A DNA stretch of 64,000 bases, from the NCBI GenBank assembly GCA_016215335.1, contig JACRKE010000026.1, positions 1,711-65,710 of the forward strand, read 5' to 3'. The DNA is from Candidatus Vogelbacteria bacterium. GTDB taxonomy: Bacteria; Patescibacteriota; Minisyncoccia; Phycocordibacterales; JACRKE01. The number at the start of each line of letters is the position of its first letter. Positions within the stretch are counted from its first letter, which is position 1. The notes under the pieces were generated by a model that was not told the origin of the DNA, ran no database searches, and saw nothing but the letters and a program-made list of their open reading frames with translations. Positions 5,368 to 61,797 of the stretch are shown here, in pieces. Made by a program: the position numbers and the translations under genes.

Positions 5368-5385
5368 TTAGTATCATAATTCCCC

Positions 5386-5420
5386 TATATACTATGTACT
5401 ATTTACTATATACTATTTAC
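5386..5420 (+). repeat. solo heptamer array, 5 units
   Basis: TATATAC TATGTAC TATTTAC TATATAC TATTTAC, 10 nt before ATG 5431. Confidence 0.95.
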
Positions 5421-5430
5421 TAATAATGCC

Positions 5431-45758: not shown

Positions 45759-47954
45759 ATGCAAACAAATAAGTGGCTTAGATGGGGGATACTTGCGGGA
45801 CTTTTTGTCACACCTTTTATAGCCTTTATAGTGCCTTACAGCACTTTTTTCCCATTCATTACGGGTAAAAACTTTGTTTTTAGGATTCTCGTGGAAATTA
45901 TATTCGCTCTTTGGCTCGTACTTTGCCTACACGATAAGTCTTATTGGCCTCGCAAGAGCTGGATAATGTGGTCAGCGACAACTTTTGTCATCGTTCTTGC
46001 GATTGCAGATATTTTTGGTGCTAATCAGGAGAGAAGTTTCTGGTCAAATTACGAACGTATGGAAGGGCTTGTTATGCACTTGCATTTGTTTATGTATTTC
46101 TTGATGGCTTCCTCCGTAATGGTTGCTTACAGTTCTGTTGAACAAAGCAGAAAAGTTTGGCATTGGCTATTCAACACATCAATTGGTGCTTCGGTCATAA
46201 TGATGCTCTATGCCTTTATGCAGGCTGCTGGCAAATTTGATGTGCATCAAGGCGTAACGAGATTGGACGCCACTCTCGGCAATTCCGCGTATATGGCCAT
46301 CTATATGGTATTTCATATATTCTTCCTGTTCTACTTTATTTGTGAAGTCACTACCTCTAAGGCCATGAAGTGGTTTTATGGCGTGGTTGCATTTCTAGAG
46401 GTAATCATTTTATACAAAACAGCGACTAGGGGTGCAATTATCGGGCTCGTTGTTGGGGTACTTGCCTCGCTCGTAATTTATGCTGTTAGATCAAAAGAAT
46501 CTGAACATGCAAAAAAAGTTGTTTATGGAGCTATCGCTGCAATCGTACTGGTGATTCTTGTTTTCTTCGCTGTGCAGAACACTTCTCTTGTGCAAAATAA
46601 TCCAACACTACAACGTTTTACAGTGAAGACTCTCGTAGATACCGTCTATACTCGTTCCACAATCTGGAGTATGGCGTTCGAGGGCTTCAAGGAGAATCCG
46701 GTTTTGGGTTGGGGACAGGACAATTTCAATTTCGTATTTAACAAATACTACAGCTCATCACTTTACGCGCAGGAGCCGTGGTTTGATCGAGCGCACAATG
46801 TGTTCTTCGATTGGCTCATTGCTGGAGGCTTGCTCGGTCTGCTAGCTTATCTAGCGCTTTATATTTCAGGGCTTTGGACACTTTGGAAACTTCATGATGA
46901 TAAGATGTCGATTGCCGCAAAAGCAATTTTCACCGGGCTTTTCGTGGCTTACTTCGTACACAATTTTACAGTATTCGATAATCTTATAAGCTACGTACTT
47001 TTCTTCACTGTCCTTGCTTTTATCCATTCTATTTCGCTACCACACCATGAAAAACATGTCTCGGAGGTGTTCCAAATGCCTGAAGCTTACCGATACGCGA
47101 TGATTGCGCTTGTGGTAGTTCTTGCTGTTGTTACCATTTACAAAGTAAATGTGCCGGCTATTCAAGCAAACCGAGTTCTTCTAAAAGCGATTAATCCCAC
47201 ATACCCAATTTCCGAACAGATAAATAACTTCAAAACGGCGATCGAGCTTGATTCATTCGGTACTCCCGAGGCGCGCGAACAACTCATGCAGTCCGCCATA
47301 AGGCAGATACAAGGAAACGGTACACAAGCCGAAAAAGAGCAGTACCTGATGTATGCCGAACAGCAGATGCTTAAGCAGATTACAGAATCGCCAAATGACG
47401 CACGCTACAGAGTTTTCATTGGAACTTTCTACGAGCAACTCGGCAAACATGAGCTGGCTATAACTGAACTTGGCAAAGCACATGAGTTATCACCGGGCAA
47501 GCAAACGATTCTATTCGGCTTGACGAGTGCGTATTTGAATTTGAAAAATTATCCAAAAGCTTTAGAGCTAGCGAAACAAGCGTATGAGCTTGAGCCTCGA
47601 TTTGATGAAGCTGCTTACAACTATTTAGCTACATTAATTTATTCAGGTAAGTCAGACGAAGTCGACCAGCTTATTCAAAATAGGTTTGAAGGCCAACCCG
47701 TAACTTACGGAACGGTTATTGCCGCCTACGCCGCAACTAAACAGTATTCAAAATTGATCAAAATCTGGCAGGATAGAATAAAGTCGGAACCGACGAATGG
47801 CCAGAATTACGTCTCTCTGGCCGCGACATATCTTGCTATGGGTGAGCGACAGCTTGCTATAGAACAACTCAAGTCTGCTATTCAGGTGAATCCTGGTTTT
47901 AAGGACCAAGGCGAATTTTATATTAAAGAGATTCAGGCGGGGAGGAATCCTTGA
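45759..47954 (+). CDS. O-antigen ligase/PglL-like oligosaccharyltransferase with C-terminal TPR repeats
   Basis: TLGN, TATRGA, R..IW..A, LGWGQDNF, DRAHN Wzy_C motifs; TPR-like helical tail. Confidence 0.88.
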   Translation: MQTNKWLRWGILAGLFVTPFIAFIVPYSTFFPFITGKNFVFRILVEIIFALWLVLCLHDKSYWPRKSWIMWSATTFVIVLAIADIFGANQERSFWSNYERMEGLVMHLHLFMYFLMASSVMVAYSSVEQSRKVWHWLFNTSIGASVIMMLYAFMQAAGKFDVHQGVTRLDATLGNSAYMAIYMVFHIFFLFYFICEVTTSKAMKWFYGVVAFLEVIILYKTATRGAIIGLVVGVLASLVIYAVRSKESEHAKKVVYGAIAAIVLVILVFFAVQNTSLVQNNPTLQRFTVKTLVDTVYTRSTIWSMAFEGFKENPVLGWGQDNFNFVFNKYYSSSLYAQEPWFDRAHNVFFDWLIAGGLLGLLAYLALYISGLWTLWKLHDDKMSIAAKAIFTGLFVAYFVHNFTVFDNLISYVLFFTVLAFIHSISLPHHEKHVSEVFQMPEAYRYAMIALVVVLAVVTIYKVNVPAIQANRVLLKAINPTYPISEQINNFKTAIELDSFGTPEAREQLMQSAIRQIQGNGTQAEKEQYLMYAEQQMLKQITESPNDARYRVFIGTFYEQLGKHELAITELGKAHELSPGKQTILFGLTSAYLNLKNYPKALELAKQAYELEPRFDEAAYNYLATLIYSGKSDEVDQLIQNRFEGQPVTYGTVIAAYAATKQYSKLIKIWQDRIKSEPTNGQNYVSLAATYLAMGERQLAIEQLKSAIQVNPGFKDQGEFYIKEIQAGRNP

Positions 47955-47966
47955 GTTTCTGGATAA

Positions 47967-48050
47967 GTAAATAGTATATTGTACATAGTATATAGGAAAG
48001 AAATCCCCATGCATTATTTTGCTATGTACTATATACTATTTACCATATAC
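47967..48050. repeat. inverted pair of heptamer arrays, empty (28-nt spacer)
   Basis: GTAAATA GTATATT GTACATA GTATATA (47967-47994) ... TATGTAC TATATAC TATTTAC CATATAC (48023-48050). Confidence 0.92.
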
Positions 48051-48057
48051 TAACCCA

Positions 48058-48213
48058 ATGCGTTACACTTGGACATCAGTAGCAATCATAGTTATTTGGA
48101 TTTCCGCGAGTATTCTCATTGTAAGCGGCAGTTTGCCGGATCCTGAAGTTTTCTTCCTCTATCTCATGGCTATCACAGTGGTGCTCTCATACATCGGTTT
48201 TAGGTCAGCATAG
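48058..48213 (+). CDS. 51-aa two-TM small membrane protein
   Basis: MRYTWTSVAIIVIWIS...YIGFRSA; paralog at 50391-50558. Confidence 0.75.
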   Translation: MRYTWTSVAIIVIWISASILIVSGSLPDPEVFFLYLMAITVVLSYIGFRSA

Positions 48214-48222
48214 GACTCAAAA

Positions 48223-48304
48223 GAATATAGTAAATAGTACATTGTATATAGCGGACTGAATCAAATCAGTATTCCCTATATACTATATACGATGTACAAT
48301 ATAC
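48223..48304. repeat. inverted pair of heptamer arrays, empty, with inner ACTGA/TCAGT stem
   Basis: GAATATA GTAAATA GTACATT GTATATA (48223-48250) ... TATATAC TATATAC GATGTAC AATATAC (48277-48304). Confidence 0.92.
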
Positions 48305-48308
48305 TAGT

Positions 48309-49925
48309 ATGACCCTCGACACCTTTCTCGACTTTCTCAATCGCTTCTTTGATCTAGTTGCGATTGCTTTTCGTTTAAGCTGGAAGAAGATGATAATTCA
48401 TCGTGGCAAAACGGTGTATCTGGATGGACCTAAAAGGCTCCGTCTTTTTTTTGAAATCTCCGGAGGTGCGTATTTAAAGATGGGTCAGATTTTGGCACTT
48501 CGTACCGACATGCTTCCTATTCGTTATACGGATGAGCTTCTTAAACTTTTGTCTCAAGTTCCTGCAACAGATTACAGTGAAATGCAAAGAGTTTTCCATG
48601 AGGAGCTTGGAATGCCACCAGAAGAGTATTTCAAAGAGTTTAATCCAAGTCCTATTGCGTCAGCTTCTATTGGTCAAGTATATAGAGCCACACTTAAGTC
48701 TGGTGCATTAGTCGCAGTGAAGATACAGAGGCCCGGTATTCAAGAGCAGTTTGAGAATGATTTCCACGTGGCTAAATTTGGAGCTGATCTACTACATCTT
48801 TTTGGCATACTTAGCGTTGTCGACTGGCATGAAGTCGTAGGAGAATTTATAAACTGGACCAGGAGAGAGCTTGATTTCACCATTGAGGCTAAAAGCGCGG
48901 AGATTATCTCAAATCACTCAAGCAAGAGGCCGCAGACCCACATACCTAAATATTATACGCAGATTTCAACAAGACGAGTGCTTGTGAGCGAGTTTATAGA
49001 AAATTTAAATTCAGTGGAACGAGTTATTTTAGGACGGCTTAAGAATCCTAAGTATTCAGAGAATCTAAAGAAGGATCACAACATCGATTTAGAAGTGATG
49101 GCAGAATATTTCATTGTTGACATGATCCGACAGTTTTTCATTGATGGATTTTTCCATGCGGATCCGCATCCAGCTAATATCTACCTATTAGATGGCAATC
49201 GACTAGGCTACTTGGATTTCGGCATTATTGGAGAAGTAGGGAATAAGCGTATGAACATGCTTCGCCTTTTGTATGCAATGAAGGAGCGAGATACGTACGA
49301 GATGGCCAAGAGTTTCTTCTCCTTCGCGCGCTTCGCATTTACGGAAGACATTGAAATCATGGAAAAATTGGAAAACGCAGCCTCTAAAGAAAAATATAAA
49401 AAAGCACTTGAAAAGATAGAGGAGATTATGGTGGATAATTTGGTTGAAGATCTCCATGCAATATTAGACCCATGGTATTCGGCACTAGATAAGGTACAAA
49501 GTAGTGAAGCAGATGCGAAAGTTCTTCTCGAATACAACGCTGCTCGCGTTTTTTCTAAAATAATAATGACAGCGAAAGATTATTCAATTTATCTACCTAG
49601 AGAAGTTGCGTTGTTCTTTAGAACTATTTCAATTGTTGACATGGTCGCATTAAAGATTTCGCCCAAGACTAATATGTTGAAGGCGATTGATCAGTTCTTT
49701 GTTGAATTTCCATTAGAAACTGCTGAAGAACTTATAACAGAGGGGACTTACGAAAAAGAAATAGAAGAACGAATCGACCCTCTTCACAACTTAACCTACG
49801 AAGAGGTGATAGAATTAAAGGTACGCGATCAGGACAGACTGAATCTTGCACGCGAAAGACTTGCCGATCTTCTTGCGCATTATGCTGAACGCTATGATGA
49901 AGTAAGAATTATACTTAAGGGATAG
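48309..49925 (+). CDS. AarF/UbiB/ABC1 family atypical kinase
   Basis: KMGQ, ASASIGQVYRA, VAVKIQRP, ELDF..EA, FFHADPHPAN, DFG. Confidence 0.92.
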   Translation: MTLDTFLDFLNRFFDLVAIAFRLSWKKMIIHRGKTVYLDGPKRLRLFFEISGGAYLKMGQILALRTDMLPIRYTDELLKLLSQVPATDYSEMQRVFHEELGMPPEEYFKEFNPSPIASASIGQVYRATLKSGALVAVKIQRPGIQEQFENDFHVAKFGADLLHLFGILSVVDWHEVVGEFINWTRRELDFTIEAKSAEIISNHSSKRPQTHIPKYYTQISTRRVLVSEFIENLNSVERVILGRLKNPKYSENLKKDHNIDLEVMAEYFIVDMIRQFFIDGFFHADPHPANIYLLDGNRLGYLDFGIIGEVGNKRMNMLRLLYAMKERDTYEMAKSFFSFARFAFTEDIEIMEKLENAASKEKYKKALEKIEEIMVDNLVEDLHAILDPWYSALDKVQSSEADAKVLLEYNAARVFSKIIMTAKDYSIYLPREVALFFRTISIVDMVALKISPKTNMLKAIDQFFVEFPLETAEELITEGTYEKEIEERIDPLHNLTYEEVIELKVRDQDRLNLARERLADLLAHYAERYDEVRIILKG

Positions 49926-49934
49926 GGAGGGGAA

Positions 49935-49962
49935 GTATATAGTAAATCGAATATAGTATATA
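49935..49962 (-). repeat. heptamer array, left arm of the four-helix-bundle element
   Basis: GTATATA GTAAATC GAATATA GTATATA. Confidence 0.9.
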
Positions 49963-49969
49963 GGAACAG

Positions 49970-50323
49970 ATGATTAATCATTTTAAGGATTTGGTTGTAT
50001 ATCAGAAATCTCATACATTGGCTGTTGAGGTATACAAAGTCACTCGAAAATTTCCTAATTCTGAAATTTTTGCACTCGCAAATCAGATGCAGAGAGCAGC
50101 TGTATCAGTTACCTCAAATATAGCAGAAGGCTTTTCCAGGAAGACTGTTAATGAAAAACTTCAGTTCTATTCATTTTCAAAAGGTTCTCTGTATGAGCTT
50201 CAGAGTCAGCTTTTAATATCTAAGGATCTCGGATATGTTAATCCAGACGCAGTATTTATTCTTGAAAACCTGATTGATGAAGTTGGACGATTATTGACTG
50301 GTGTACAACAAGCTTTGAAATGA
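49970..50323 (+). CDS. four-helix-bundle protein (23S rRNA IVP / Avd-like family)
   Basis: FKDLVVYQKS, FP..E.FAL.NQMQRAAVSVTSNIAEG, GSLYELQSQL...DLGY. Confidence 0.93.
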   Translation: MINHFKDLVVYQKSHTLAVEVYKVTRKFPNSEIFALANQMQRAAVSVTSNIAEGFSRKTVNEKLQFYSFSKGSLYELQSQLLISKDLGYVNPDAVFILENLIDEVGRLLTGVQQALK

Positions 50324-50355
50324 AGGGTACTTCTTATATAATATTCTGAGTTCGC

Positions 50356-50383
50356 TATATACTATTTACTAAATACAATATAC
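50356..50383 (+). repeat. heptamer array, right arm of the four-helix-bundle element
   Basis: TATATAC TATTTAC TAAATAC AATATAC, 7 nt before ATG 50391. Confidence 0.92.
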
Positions 50384-50390
50384 TAATCAC

Positions 50391-50558
50391 ATGAAATATC
50401 CTTGGACAGCAATATCACTCACCGTTATTTGGCTCTCGACTACATATATGATCATTAAGCAGCCTAGTCTGCATGTGAATCAAATTCTTCTAATTACTCT
50501 CATTGGCACAATTATAATCGCGCTCATTGGTTTCCGTTCTCCGACACTTAGAAAATAA
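50391..50558 (+). CDS. 55-aa two-TM small membrane protein (not in ORF track), paralog of 48058-48213
   Basis: manual translation MKYPWTAISLTVIWLSTTYMIIKQPSLHVNQILLITLIGTIIIALIGFRSPTLRK*. Confidence 0.75.
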   Translation: MKYPWTAISLTVIWLSTTYMIIKQPSLHVNQILLITLIGTIIIALIGFRSPTLRK

Positions 50559-50582
50559 CTTCTTGTATTTAGGTTCGAGTTA

Positions 50583-50676
50583 GTGTGTTTTGTTTTACGA
50601 AACTTGGGAGGGCGACGGTCCGAGCACGAGGAATTTTTCACCAGAAAAATATCCGTGTTCGCAAAATAAAATACAC
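50583..50676 (+). other. candidate structured RNA or miniature repeat element
   Basis: 18-bp outer stem with two G-U pairs and one mismatch, plus inner GAGCACG/CGTGTTC and ATTTTTC/GAAAAAT stems; the outer and GAGCACG stems share 50658-50660. Confidence 0.45.
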
Positions 50677-50835
50677 GAGAGAAAGTTGTCCACATATTTT
50701 TGCAATATTTCATTGTGAATAATATTTTTTTATTCGATAATAGTATATAGAGGTAATGTAGTTTTTGTTTTCATATAAATATTTTTGAAAGCAAAAGGTC
50801 GACATTATCATTCTTATCAATCAAGCACAAACAAA

Positions 50836-50898
50836 ATGGCAGCAAAGAAAAAAGCAGCAAAGAAGAAGACAGCAAAGAAGTCGGCAAAGCGTCGATAA
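50836..50898 (+). CDS. 20-aa Lys/Ala-rich basic peptide (histone-H1/protamine-like)
   Basis: MAAKKKAAKKKTAKKSAKRR*, A-rich initiation context, followed by its own terminator. Confidence 0.65.
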   Translation: MAAKKKAAKKKTAKKSAKRR

Positions 50899-50939
50899 CT
50901 TTGATTGCGAAGCCCTCGGCATTCGCACTTCATTCACTT

Positions 50940-50986
50940 AAGAGAAAACCTCGCACCACCAACTGGCGGACGCGAGGTTTTCTCTT
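50940..50986 (+). terminator. intrinsic terminator-like hairpin after the basic peptide gene
   Basis: AAGAGAAAACCTCGC-17nt-GCGAGGTTTTCTCTT. Confidence 0.75.
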
Positions 50987-51141
50987 GTTCTAAATCTTTC
51001 TTTCTAACGTTCTGGTTATATGTTACAATGAAGCGTTAATCTATTACGACAAGCGAGGAGAAATGTGTAAACGTATCTCGTTTACACAGAGTCCGAGTCG
51101 AAGTCGCAAAAAAGGGTATAATACCCTTTACAATCATATAT

Positions 51142-53670
51142 ATGGCCATGTTAGATGGTTTGACTAAACTTTTTGGTGATGGAACAGGTGCCTATTTAAA
51201 GGCGACGCGTAGAACTGTTGAAAAAATCAATTCTCTAGAACATGAATTTGAGAAAAAAACTGACGATGAACTCAAGAACATTTCACATATTTTTAAAGAA
51301 AAGTTGGTGAATGGTTTAACTCTGGACGATATTTTACCTGAAGCTTTTGCCGCTGTGCGCGAAGCCGCCAAGAGAACCATAAAGCAACGCCATTATGATG
51401 TTCAACTGATTGGAGGCATAACAATGCACGAGGGTAAGATTGCTGAGATGCGTACGGGAGAGGGTAAAACTCTTGTGGCAACATTGCCGGCGTATTTAAA
51501 TGCGCTTTCAGGCAAGGGCGTGCATGTGGTTACTGTTAATGACTATTTGTCGAGACGCGACACTGTATGGATGGGACAAATCTATAATGCGCTTGGACTA
51601 ACAAACGCTGTAATCAATCACGAATCTTCTTTTATTTATGATCCTAAGCATGTATCGCAATCTGAAGAAAAAGAGTTGGACGAAAAACGCGATGAACTCG
51701 GAAGTTTCAAGGTTGTATATGAATTCTTAAGACCTTGTACTAGGCGTGAAGCGTACGAGGCTGATATTACTTATGGTACCAACAACGAATTTGGCTTTGA
51801 CTACCTACGCGACCATCTTGTGTATCATGAGAAAAATCTATCACAACGCGACTACAATTTTGCAATTGTGGACGAAGTTGACTCAATCCTGATTGATGAA
51901 TCGCGTACTCCACTTATTATTTCATCTCCGTTTGCTGACGCGGAAACGCTGTATCAAAAATTTTCACAAATCGCAGAACAGCTTAATCAGGACGAGCATT
52001 ATGAAGTAGATGAGAAGTTGCGGGCCGTAACTCTAAAAGAGACGGGGATCGATAGGGCAGAGAGTTTACTTGGTGTAGACAATATTTATACAGAAAAAGG
52101 CATTAAATATGTACATCATCTGGAGACTGCTATTCGAGCTAAGGCACTTTTTGAAAGAGACAGAGAGTACGTAGTCAAAGACGGTGAGATAATAATCGTG
52201 GATGAATCAACTGGGCGACTCCAACCTGGACGCAGATGGTCTGAAGGACTTCACCAGGCCATAGAATCAAAGGAAGGTGTAAAAGTTCAACAAGAGTCTC
52301 GCACGCTTGCATCAATTAGTTTTCAGAACTATTTCAGACCGTATGCGAAGCTTGCAGGCATGACGGGAACTGCTTACACATCTAAAGAAGAGTTTTTCAA
52401 GGTGTACGAACTCGATGTAATACCAGTTCCACCAAACAAAACTAGTGGCCGTAAAGATGAGAATGATTTTATTTTCCAGACAGAGATGGGTAAGTTCAAG
52501 GCAGTTGCAAGACAGATTAAAGAACTCAATGCTAAGGGTCAACCGGTTCTTGTGGGTACTGTTTCAATTGAGAAGAACGAACTTCTTTCTGCTTTTCTCA
52601 ATAAAGAGGGCATTAAACACGAGATCCTGAATGCTAAAAATCACGAGAGAGAAGGTGAGATAATTGCGCAAGCCGGTCGCAAAGGAAGCGTAGTAATAGC
52701 TACTAACATGGCGGGAAGAGGAGTGGACATTCTGCTTGGTGGCGCGCCTTATGACAAAGAGGCGGCTGATGAAGTTAGGTCGCTCGGTGGCCTTGCTGTG
52801 ATAGGTACCGAACGTCACGAGGCGCGCCGTATCGACAACCAGCTTCGAGGTCGTTCAGGACGACAAGGCGACCCAGGGTCTACGCAATTTTTCGTTTCTC
52901 TCGAGGATTCTCTTATGAGAGTTTTTGCTTCAGACATGGTCAAAAACATGATGGGCAAGTTAGGCATCCCAGAAGATGAACCCATACAGAACAGAATGGT
53001 GAGTAAGGCCTTAGAGTCAGCGCAAGAGAAGATCGAGGGATTCAACTTCGATTCTAGAAAACACTTGCTTGAATATGATGACGTACTTAATCACCATAGA
53101 CGTTCGATATACACTAAGCGCCAGGATTTACTCAAAGCTGATCTTGACGGACTAATAGACTTTGTAGATCAGGTGAGCGGCGGTGATGAGAAAATGAAAA
53201 TCATGATTGAGGAGAAGAGGAAACTCCTTGGAGATGAAACTTTTCGCGACATTTTACGCCAGCTCATACTACAGCTCATTGATCTCTACTGGATGGAACA
53301 CCTGGAGGCTATGGAATACATGCGGGGTAGCGTGCGTTTGCGAGCATACGGCCAACGTGATCCACTCGTTGAATATAAACGCGAGGGCTTAAGACTTTTC
53401 AAAAATCTTGAAGAGGATATTAACAACGAGATACTTAGACTAATTCCAACGATCGGCGCAGTGCAATTCGCACAAGCAGAACAGAAAGGCGAAGCAATAC
53501 ATTTAGAGCCCAATTCACTTTCGAAAGAATCTAATGGTTCGGGTGCTGATAAGAGGAATATAAGACCGGCAGCGATTAAACATCTAAATAAAGACGGTAG
53601 TGAAATCGGACGCAACGACCTATGCTACTGCGGGAGCGGGAAGAAGTATAAGAAGTGTCATGGGAGATAG
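51142..53670 (+). CDS. secA: preprotein translocase subunit SecA
   Basis: EMRTGEGKT, VTVNDYL, DEVDSILIDE, RRIDNQLRGRSGRQGDPG, C-terminal CYCGSGKKYKKCHG. Confidence 0.98.
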   Translation: MAMLDGLTKLFGDGTGAYLKATRRTVEKINSLEHEFEKKTDDELKNISHIFKEKLVNGLTLDDILPEAFAAVREAAKRTIKQRHYDVQLIGGITMHEGKIAEMRTGEGKTLVATLPAYLNALSGKGVHVVTVNDYLSRRDTVWMGQIYNALGLTNAVINHESSFIYDPKHVSQSEEKELDEKRDELGSFKVVYEFLRPCTRREAYEADITYGTNNEFGFDYLRDHLVYHEKNLSQRDYNFAIVDEVDSILIDESRTPLIISSPFADAETLYQKFSQIAEQLNQDEHYEVDEKLRAVTLKETGIDRAESLLGVDNIYTEKGIKYVHHLETAIRAKALFERDREYVVKDGEIIIVDESTGRLQPGRRWSEGLHQAIESKEGVKVQQESRTLASISFQNYFRPYAKLAGMTGTAYTSKEEFFKVYELDVIPVPPNKTSGRKDENDFIFQTEMGKFKAVARQIKELNAKGQPVLVGTVSIEKNELLSAFLNKEGIKHEILNAKNHEREGEIIAQAGRKGSVVIATNMAGRGVDILLGGAPYDKEAADEVRSLGGLAVIGTERHEARRIDNQLRGRSGRQGDPGSTQFFVSLEDSLMRVFASDMVKNMMGKLGIPEDEPIQNRMVSKALESAQEKIEGFNFDSRKHLLEYDDVLNHHRRSIYTKRQDLLKADLDGLIDFVDQVSGGDEKMKIMIEEKRKLLGDETFRDILRQLILQLIDLYWMEHLEAMEYMRGSVRLRAYGQRDPLVEYKREGLRLFKNLEEDINNEILRLIPTIGAVQFAQAEQKGEAIHLEPNSLSKESNGSGADKRNIRPAAIKHLNKDGSEIGRNDLCYCGSGKKYKKCHGR

Positions 53671-61750: not shown

Positions 61751-61761
61751 GTTGTATTTCC

Positions 61762-61789
61762 TATATACTATTTACTATATACAATATAC
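61762..61789 (+). repeat. solo heptamer array, 4 units
   Basis: TATATAC TATTTAC TATATAC AATATAC; 61761-61795 differs at one base from 50355-50389. Confidence 0.95.
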
Positions 61790-61797
61790 TAATCAAT

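Follow-up and report, generated by a model that had tools for sequence, protein, structure and literature searches.

We found that a 117-aa four-helix-bundle gene is enclosed by two inverted arrays of heptamers, and that gene and arrays together form a real and general gene-plus-repeat cassette, located outside rRNA and apparently undescribed. Empty sites in related genomes show that this cassette was inserted at an intergenic junction, the direction of the event being what we infer from the sequence comparison. In our preferred reading, to which we assign a probability of roughly 0.45, the cassette is a self-recognising insertion element. Its product, likely a pentamer, would bind the transcribed arms and probably help both the cassette and the gene-less copies to spread and to be tolerated. 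The window referred to below is the whole stretch of DNA that was analysed (64,000 nt), part of contig C19 of a 0.84-Mb assembly that is 91% complete.

The cassette and its insertion site

The initial annotation had described four reverse heptamers upstream of the gene and four forward heptamers downstream, and its coordinates proved right against the sequence, the list of open reading frames and TRF (Table 1). The upstream (R) arm starts 10 nt past the kinase stop codon and holds four GTATATA-type units (49935-49962, read from the sequence). The downstream (F) arm holds four TATATAC-type units (50356-50383) and ends just 5' of the ATG at 50391. TRF calls both arms with a period of 7, at 49934-49963 and 50355-50385. 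The imperfect stem of about 28 bp that had been suggested to form around the gene is indeed possible: in register, 22 of 28 arm positions pair, and folding of the complete 468-nt element brings the arms together as its closing stem (z = -3.35, a value matched by 0 of 100 shuffles). By hand reading, the six mismatches are A-A, U-U and C-U, and none is G-U.

Table 1. Positions in the window of the cassette, its neighbours and other CTATATA-type arrays.
Feature	Position	Strand	Remarks
Upstream (R) arm	49935..49963	-	Four heptamer units, CTATATA-type reading outward; period 7 by TRF
Four-helix-bundle gene, 117 aa, PF05635 / TIGR02436	49970..50323	+	Profile scores, structure model
Promoter-like site	50315..50342	+	11/12 matches; between gene end and F arm
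Downstream (F) arm	50355..50385	+	Four CTATATA-type units and a partial fifth; period 7
ABC1/UbiB-type atypical kinase (host gene 5' of insertion)	48309..49925	+	PF03109, 201.8 bits
55-aa hydrophobic conserved protein (host gene 3' of insertion)	50391..50558	+	No family match
51-aa paralogue of the 55-aa protein, first of conserved three-gene operon	48058..48213	+	
Gene-less doublet 1 (R arm, 26-nt spacer, F arm)	47966..48052	.	5' of 51-aa gene; z -4.5
Gene-less doublet 2	48224..48306	.	Between 51-aa gene and kinase; z -4.2
Solo F array	5385..5422	+	Directly 5' of start codon; no fold, z 0.4
Solo F array	61755..61791	+	Directly 5' of start codon; no fold, z -1.4

No rRNA match was found at 47000-52000, where the neighbours of the cassette are protein-coding genes, and a scan against Rfam returned only chance hairpin matches far below threshold. 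Likewise, no transposase, nuclease or reverse transcriptase was found beside the cassette. Sigma-70-like sites number 9 in the region against 9.9 expected, and the best of them, the promoter-like site of Table 1, may be a chance match. A promoter at this position would give a transcript with the unpaired F arm as its leader.

The kinase and the two small hydrophobic paralogues that flank it, neither of which has a Pfam or NCBIfam match, form a conserved operon whose three genes occur together in at least 24 genomes of the class. We compared 29 other kinase loci, drawn from the 31 other genomes with a match among 400. The 55-aa gene follows the kinase in 24 of them, one locus is cut at a contig end and four have other neighbours. 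At all 24 orthologous kinase/55-aa junctions the four-helix-bundle gene is absent, and the gap measures -4 to 107 nt (one junction, of 18 nt, counted from the last kinase match) against 465 nt here. The empty site that the initial annotation had proposed to look for at this junction is thus present in 24 of 24 relatives, and we therefore regard the cassette as an insertion. At the closest empty site the kinase is only 45-47% identical, and a close empty site is missing because the kinase was not found in the two genomes of the same family. Six of the 24 junctions carry period-7 arrays of other heptamers, and the closest orthologous junction holds a complete gene-less doublet of another heptamer; in the present genome, all three junctions of the kinase operon carry CTATATA arms. 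One DNA sequencing run, possibly the source of the assembly, covers this region in a single contig and shows no joint skipping the gene, which we do not count as evidence.

The 117-aa protein scores 124 bits against PF05635 (cut-off 33.8) and 110.7 bits against TIGR02436 (cut-off 24), and falls under the cut-offs of the Avd models (NF033474, 36.3 of 80; PF22296, 37.6 of 40). An AlphaFold model built from 82 homologues (pLDDT 98) places helices at residues 9-25, 36-56, 60-86 and 92-116 and superposes on XCC0516 (PDB 2GSC, five chains) with a TM score of 0.95 and an rmsd of 0.6. It also matches BT_0352 (2RLD), and Avd (4DWL) at a TM score of 0.79. From the five-chain entries 2GSC and 2RLD, the protein is likely a pentamer. 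Family-wide, the gene is kept by purifying selection, as shown by a median dN/dS of 0.083, with 50 of 51 pairs below 0.5; these 51 finite values came from 75 disjoint close pairs, of which 21 were saturated and three lacked synonymous change. Only four longer homologues occur among 324 candidates, fused solely to LamG-like or pilin-type domains (one to a pilin N-methylation domain). The lack of fusions to nucleases or reverse transcriptases among the same 324 carries little weight.

Heptamer arrays in the family and in the genome

We collected 79 homologue loci, 75 of them with full flanks. Period-7 arrays on both sides with an inverted match were found at 44 of these 75 loci and at 4 of 194 other ORFs from the same loci. 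Flanks cross-paired between loci gave 64 of 368, and other periods gave 0-5. Under a second criterion, two arms were present for 175 of the 267 distinct proteins encoded at 309 loci and, in the held-out set, for 57 of 96 proteins from 108 loci; the remaining 92 of 267 and 39 of 96, without two clear arms, count against our preferred reading. The suggestion that inverted arrays flank PF05635 genes throughout the family is therefore borne out by a clear enrichment, and the lack of enrichment that had been named beforehand as speaking against it was not seen.

Units across the family share the register N-C-T-R-N-N-N, and heptamer similarity increases with protein identity, starting at 3.3 and reaching 5.7 of 7. 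Heptamer sequence thus follows protein clade, a relation that the initial annotation had proposed to test, and it is co-inherited with the protein, a pattern that simple linkage would also give. Both neighbours could be called at 72 armed loci; the gene runs in the sense direction relative to the two of them at 52 and antisense to both at 7. PF05635 is frequent, occurring in 209 of 401 genomes of this class and in 59 of 101 in a second phylum. Genomes with TACNA-type arrays have the gene more often (54/78 vs 154/322, p 0.001, kin not being independent). A PF05635 match (E<=1e-15) is absent in 24 of the 78 array-bearing genomes, and a TIGR02436 match in 3 of 10 array-rich ones.

The present genome is rich in such arrays. 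Genome-wide we counted 88 arrays of period 7 against 2-9 for periods 5, 6 and 8-11, and a scan for heptamer families gave 272 raw matches against 1 in the block-shuffled genome. Given this excess and the nearly empty control, the arrays are not due to chance. With 15 unit types chosen from the array list, the family scan yielded 139 arrays, of which 28 are of the CTATATA type: the two arms of the cassette, seven gene-less doublets and 12 solos. Two of the doublets and two of the solos lie in the window (Table 1), in agreement with the proposal that the cassette is the complete version of an element also present, in empty and solo form, elsewhere in the window. The second solo array differs from the F arm of the cassette by a single base over four units.

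CTATATA arms point outward. F arms end just 5' of start codons in 14 of 28 cases (2 the wrong way), and reverse arms stand behind stop codons in 7 of 28 (3 the wrong way). F arms of CTAC-type arrays end a few bases 5' of a start codon in 20 of 57 cases, with 4 the wrong way. In the S10 ribosomal-protein operon (C20:7813-10146), a CTAC-type doublet occupies each of four successive junctions, and at three successive junctions arm and spacer are near-identical. Since these doublets share both arm and spacer, the sequences indicate that doublets are copied as whole units.

The genome holds two other PF05635 genes over the cut-offs, on contigs C9 and C5, with CTACAAC and TTCGTGC arms, respectively. 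All three over-cut-off genes are thus armed, each with its own heptamer. In the array list, outward arms separated by 130-1300 nt enclose just two genes, both of the PF05635 family. For the 21 TTTTCAA-type arrays, no cognate gene was found in the 91% complete assembly. The third PF05635 gene (C5:17640-18135) belongs to the other subfamily and lies, judging its neighbours by eye, between the end of a LexA/UmuD-like gene and the start of a DinB-like gene.

A weak Avd-like gene on contig C29 is without heptamer arms. It lies beside a reverse transcriptase match broken into two pieces with a TGA (C29:346-1554), the only PF00078 matches of the genome, and by sequence the locus is probably a decayed diversity-generating retroelement (DGR). 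Y1-transposase (RAYT-like) genes number eight in the 0.84-Mb genome, on contigs C2, C7, C8, C10, C14, C25, C33 and C34, and no GxxExxY gene was found in it.

Pairing or recognition

The consensus over 112 units of the CTATATA family is C-N-A-T-D-T-A: its C, A, T, T and A each recur in 105-111 units and count as fixed, and the two other positions are free. This pattern of five fixed and two free positions is equal in the 12 solo and the 16 paired arrays. Four units are present in 19 of the 28 arrays and five in 6. The modal array has four units followed by part of a fifth, and no two of the 25 full four-unit arrays are identical. DGR-like adenine mutagenesis was considered as a source of this unit variation and rejected: the A's at the two free positions lie on opposite strands, and elsewhere in the unit A's are fixed.

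An arm pairs no better with its own partner than with family arms from other copies (31 doublets; mean +0.23 of 28, p 0.79), and arm mismatches show no excess of G-U over A-C (102 vs 91 loci, p 0.47). The idea that the stem is kept for pairing is weakened by these two results. As compensation and G-U excess are both lacking and the solos are equally fixed, selection acts on particular bases and not on pairing. The sequences therefore favour recognition by a protein over a purely structural stem.

TRAP-like rings read repeats with fixed bases and free spacers, the number of units being near that of the subunits. Both traits are found here, in the fixed and free spacer bases of each unit and in a unit number near the predicted subunit number. 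Taken with the way in which Avd contacts RNA (see below), base conservation and array length would favour a ring that reads one heptamer unit per subunit. The suggestion that an oligomer reads four to five units thus gains indirect support from the position-specific conservation in solos and from the modal four units plus a partial fifth.

We also looked for a code linking residues of the protein to bases of the unit. In a training set of 175 loci, columns 55, 56, 75, 79, 104 and 106 stood out, and residue 56 tracked base 4, with K/R accompanying C/T in 20 of 25 cases and D/E accompanying G in 12 of 15. The signal was kept after de-replication, the classes having been chosen on the same data. 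In pairs over all branches, K/R at residue 56 gave 7.1 same against 0.2 opposite of 9 and beat 47 other columns; columns 106 and 79 failed this test, and supported branches provided only 1-6 independent pairs. Eight predictions were then registered before we read the 57 held-out loci, mostly from the second phylum, and none of the eight reached p<0.05. The trend agreed with the prediction at positions 56 and 106 and did not at 55, 75 and 79, in a set where only 10 loci are not A/G/S at position 56 and registers are noisy. Register-free tests yielded no consistent column. We therefore do not claim a residue-to-base code, as the one seen in training scored 0/8 on held-out loci.

Known systems and competing explanations

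RAYT/REP/REPIN systems combine a gene-bearing copy between inverted repeats with dispersed doublets and singles, and their repeat type follows protein clade. The cassette with its seven gene-less doublets and 12 solos resembles this arrangement. Unlike in RAYT/REPIN, the arms are tandem heptamers and not palindromes, and the enclosed protein lacks a match to a transposase family; we know of no HUH or other catalytic motif in it.

The other close parallel is the intervening sequence (IVS) of 23S rRNA. In Coxiella burnetii, heptamer repeats stand 5' of an S23p ORF, the element has a 28-bp stem, and RNase III cuts at the first repeat; the authors judged the IVS protein expendable (PMC4990558). 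According to the same source, ORF-bearing 23S IVSs (Coxiella burnetii, Leptospira) share with our cassette a PF05635 ORF within terminal inverted repeats of about 28 bp and tandem heptamers directly 5' of a start codon, and they are sporadic and horizontally acquired. The initial view that no such arrangement had been characterised therefore fails for 23S rRNA; outside rRNA, our literature search found none. The terminal inverted repeats around an S23p ORF are present at our locus, but the location inside a 16S or 23S rRNA gene is not. In contrast to the 23S IVS, the cassette lies in a protein-coding operon, its stem is imperfect (22/28) and uncompensated, its family is under purifying selection and the genome holds many gene-less copies. 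Altogether, the cassette works like a cross between an ORF-bearing IVS and a repeat family of the RAYT/REPIN style, and it is a member of neither, since it lies outside rRNA and carries no transposase gene.

Heptamer repeats have been described as over-represented in bacteria and unexplained (introduction of Rehm et al. 2015, PMC4692102). The Xanthomonas GGGAATC and Nostoc GGGGA(C/T)T repeats of that study mostly have four units with five conserved positions, and in Xanthomonas inverted pairs stand at junctions inside core operons; unit number, the five conserved positions, the inverted pairs at such junctions and the polarity to stop and start codons are shared with our arrays. They were read as G-quadruplex formers, which the AT-rich arrays here cannot be, and the text available proposes no protein partner (PMC4692102). 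Array no. 15 of its supplement, which passes without comment there, has four units, lies 6 nt past bccP and reaches into the start of xcc0516, the gene for the pentamer of PDB 2GSC; no partner arm is listed behind xcc0516 in this supplement. In marine Beggiatoaceae, TAACTGA direct repeats form short solo arrays just 5' of start codons, as here, including those of ribosomal-protein operons; it was suggested that they act in translation and that a mobile protein binds them, with S1, Csp and CsrA as candidates (MacGregor 2015, PMC4679880). Neither four-helix bundles nor intervening sequences are mentioned in the available text of that article. Our search, whose coverage left out most subscription journals, found no literature linking PF05635 to heptamer arrays outside rRNA. 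Avd (PDB 4DWL, 8UB7) shares the fold of our protein and is an RNA-base-binding pentamer: in the DGR complex as described in the preprint, all five protomers contact an RNA stem-loop, and flipped-out bases enter inter-protomer crevices, where each protomer uses the same residues to read them (bioRxiv 10.1101/2023.10.23.563531). Unlike Avd, the cassette protein scores under the Avd cut-offs, and no reverse transcriptase or template/variable repeats lie beside its gene.

In our preferred reading, the armed gene has inserted between two genes that are adjacent in relatives and, as its orientation suggests, would be expressed from the host operon; the protein, retained by selection in the family, would assemble into a pentamer. 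On RNA, this pentamer would probably bind the heptamer of its own arms, each subunit taking roughly one 7-base unit, with bases in the inter-subunit crevices as in Avd. It could then act on the arm RNA as an adaptor or protect it as a shield, in opposition to RNase III or jointly with it, and a host enzyme acting in trans would make new copies, this and the adaptor or shield role being the least certain steps. An extension of this reading, which we consider doubtful, is that PF05635 genes and their arms are the master copies of an undescribed and very widespread class of selfish elements. Each pentamer variant would read its own RNA unit through a few hypervariable residues (55/56, 75 and 106 here) and seed gene-less arms at gene junctions.

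The most credible alternative, though an unlikely one, is a domesticated regulator: a TRAP-like pentamer whose operators, the arrays, replace the ribosome-binding site of selected genes and no longer move. It would account for the F arms a few bases 5' of start codons in both the CTATATA and the CTAC-type arrays and for the occupation of successive junctions in one operon, and it accords with the translational role proposed by MacGregor (PMC4679880). Against it, the kinase/55-aa junction is empty or carries a different heptamer in relatives, so that no conserved regulon is apparent, and array polarity results when outward-pointing arms fill short gaps; moreover, at least 10 heptamer families coexist in this 0.84-Mb genome and arrays persist without a gene. 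Next in credibility, and unlikely too, comes an mRNA version of the rRNA IVS, in which the arms would form an RNA stem cut by RNase III that separates or destabilises cistrons, the protein riding along and not reading the repeats. The Coxiella IVS has the same design, in Haemophilus RNase III is reported to cut a heptamer-containing 5'-UTR hairpin (PMC12721329), an RNase III gene is present here, and the element and both window doublets fold better than shuffles. Yet neither the pairing with the own partner arm nor the G-U count bears such a stem out, solo arrays keep the fixed bases with no partner, and the protein is under strong purifying selection.

We regard as rather improbable a DNA-level miniature element of the REPIN or MITE kind, with no part for RNA, whose arms would be terminal inverted repeats, recognised in double-stranded or cruciform form and mobilised by a transposase of the host. 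The full, empty and solo forms parallel RAYT/REPIN as generally known, doublets are copied as units in a genome with eight Y1-transposase genes, and many arms end, by eye, in CTA, which is compatible with a TA target. However, the Y1 transposases could be dismissed as partners where they were examined, six of the eight having palindromic flanks of their own and none a heptamer array. The strong sense bias of the gene and the divergence of all 25 full arrays also oppose this explanation, as does Avd, the nearest characterised relative, which binds RNA in its complex (bioRxiv 10.1101/2023.10.23.563531). Finally, the arrays might be local simple-sequence repeats or -10 promoter elements linked to PF05635 only incidentally, since by eye the CTATATA unit yields a -10-like TATACT about 3-8 nt 5' of ATG. 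This is very improbable: CTAC-type arrays at an equal distance from start codons have, by eye, no TAnnnT hexamer, the family-wide enrichment contradicts it, and three paralogues carry three arm types in one genome.

PF05635 is a common family with solved structures and no assigned function, and the evidence ties it to the unexplained heptamer repeats of bacteria. Should the ring prove to read its own unit, the function of PF05635 and the heptamer excess, both long-standing questions, would be answered at once, and it would become possible to test where Avd and the ORF-bearing rRNA IVS come from. Should the selfish-element reading be true, it would explain the general heptamer excess in prokaryotes with the ORF-bearing 23S IVS as a special case, and it would provide a reprogrammable ring-shaped RNA reader related to DGR Avd. 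This locus adds a series of empty sites, some of them colonised independently by other heptamers, a pairing test with a negative outcome, a residue-to-base code that failed on held-out loci, a link to the gene of the solved pentamer 2GSC and three differently armed paralogues, which offer built-in controls for a comparison of cross-binding.

Two minor observations concern the surroundings of the cassettes. By hand reading, the downstream arm of the second cassette (C9:17222-17263) lies inside a prepilin-type leader frame that overlaps the gene end, and heptamer arrays therefore encode low-complexity pilin leaders. In the window, a short Lys/Ala-rich ORF with a 15-nt repeat (50828-50897, start near 50837) bears a resemblance to histone-like basic tails.
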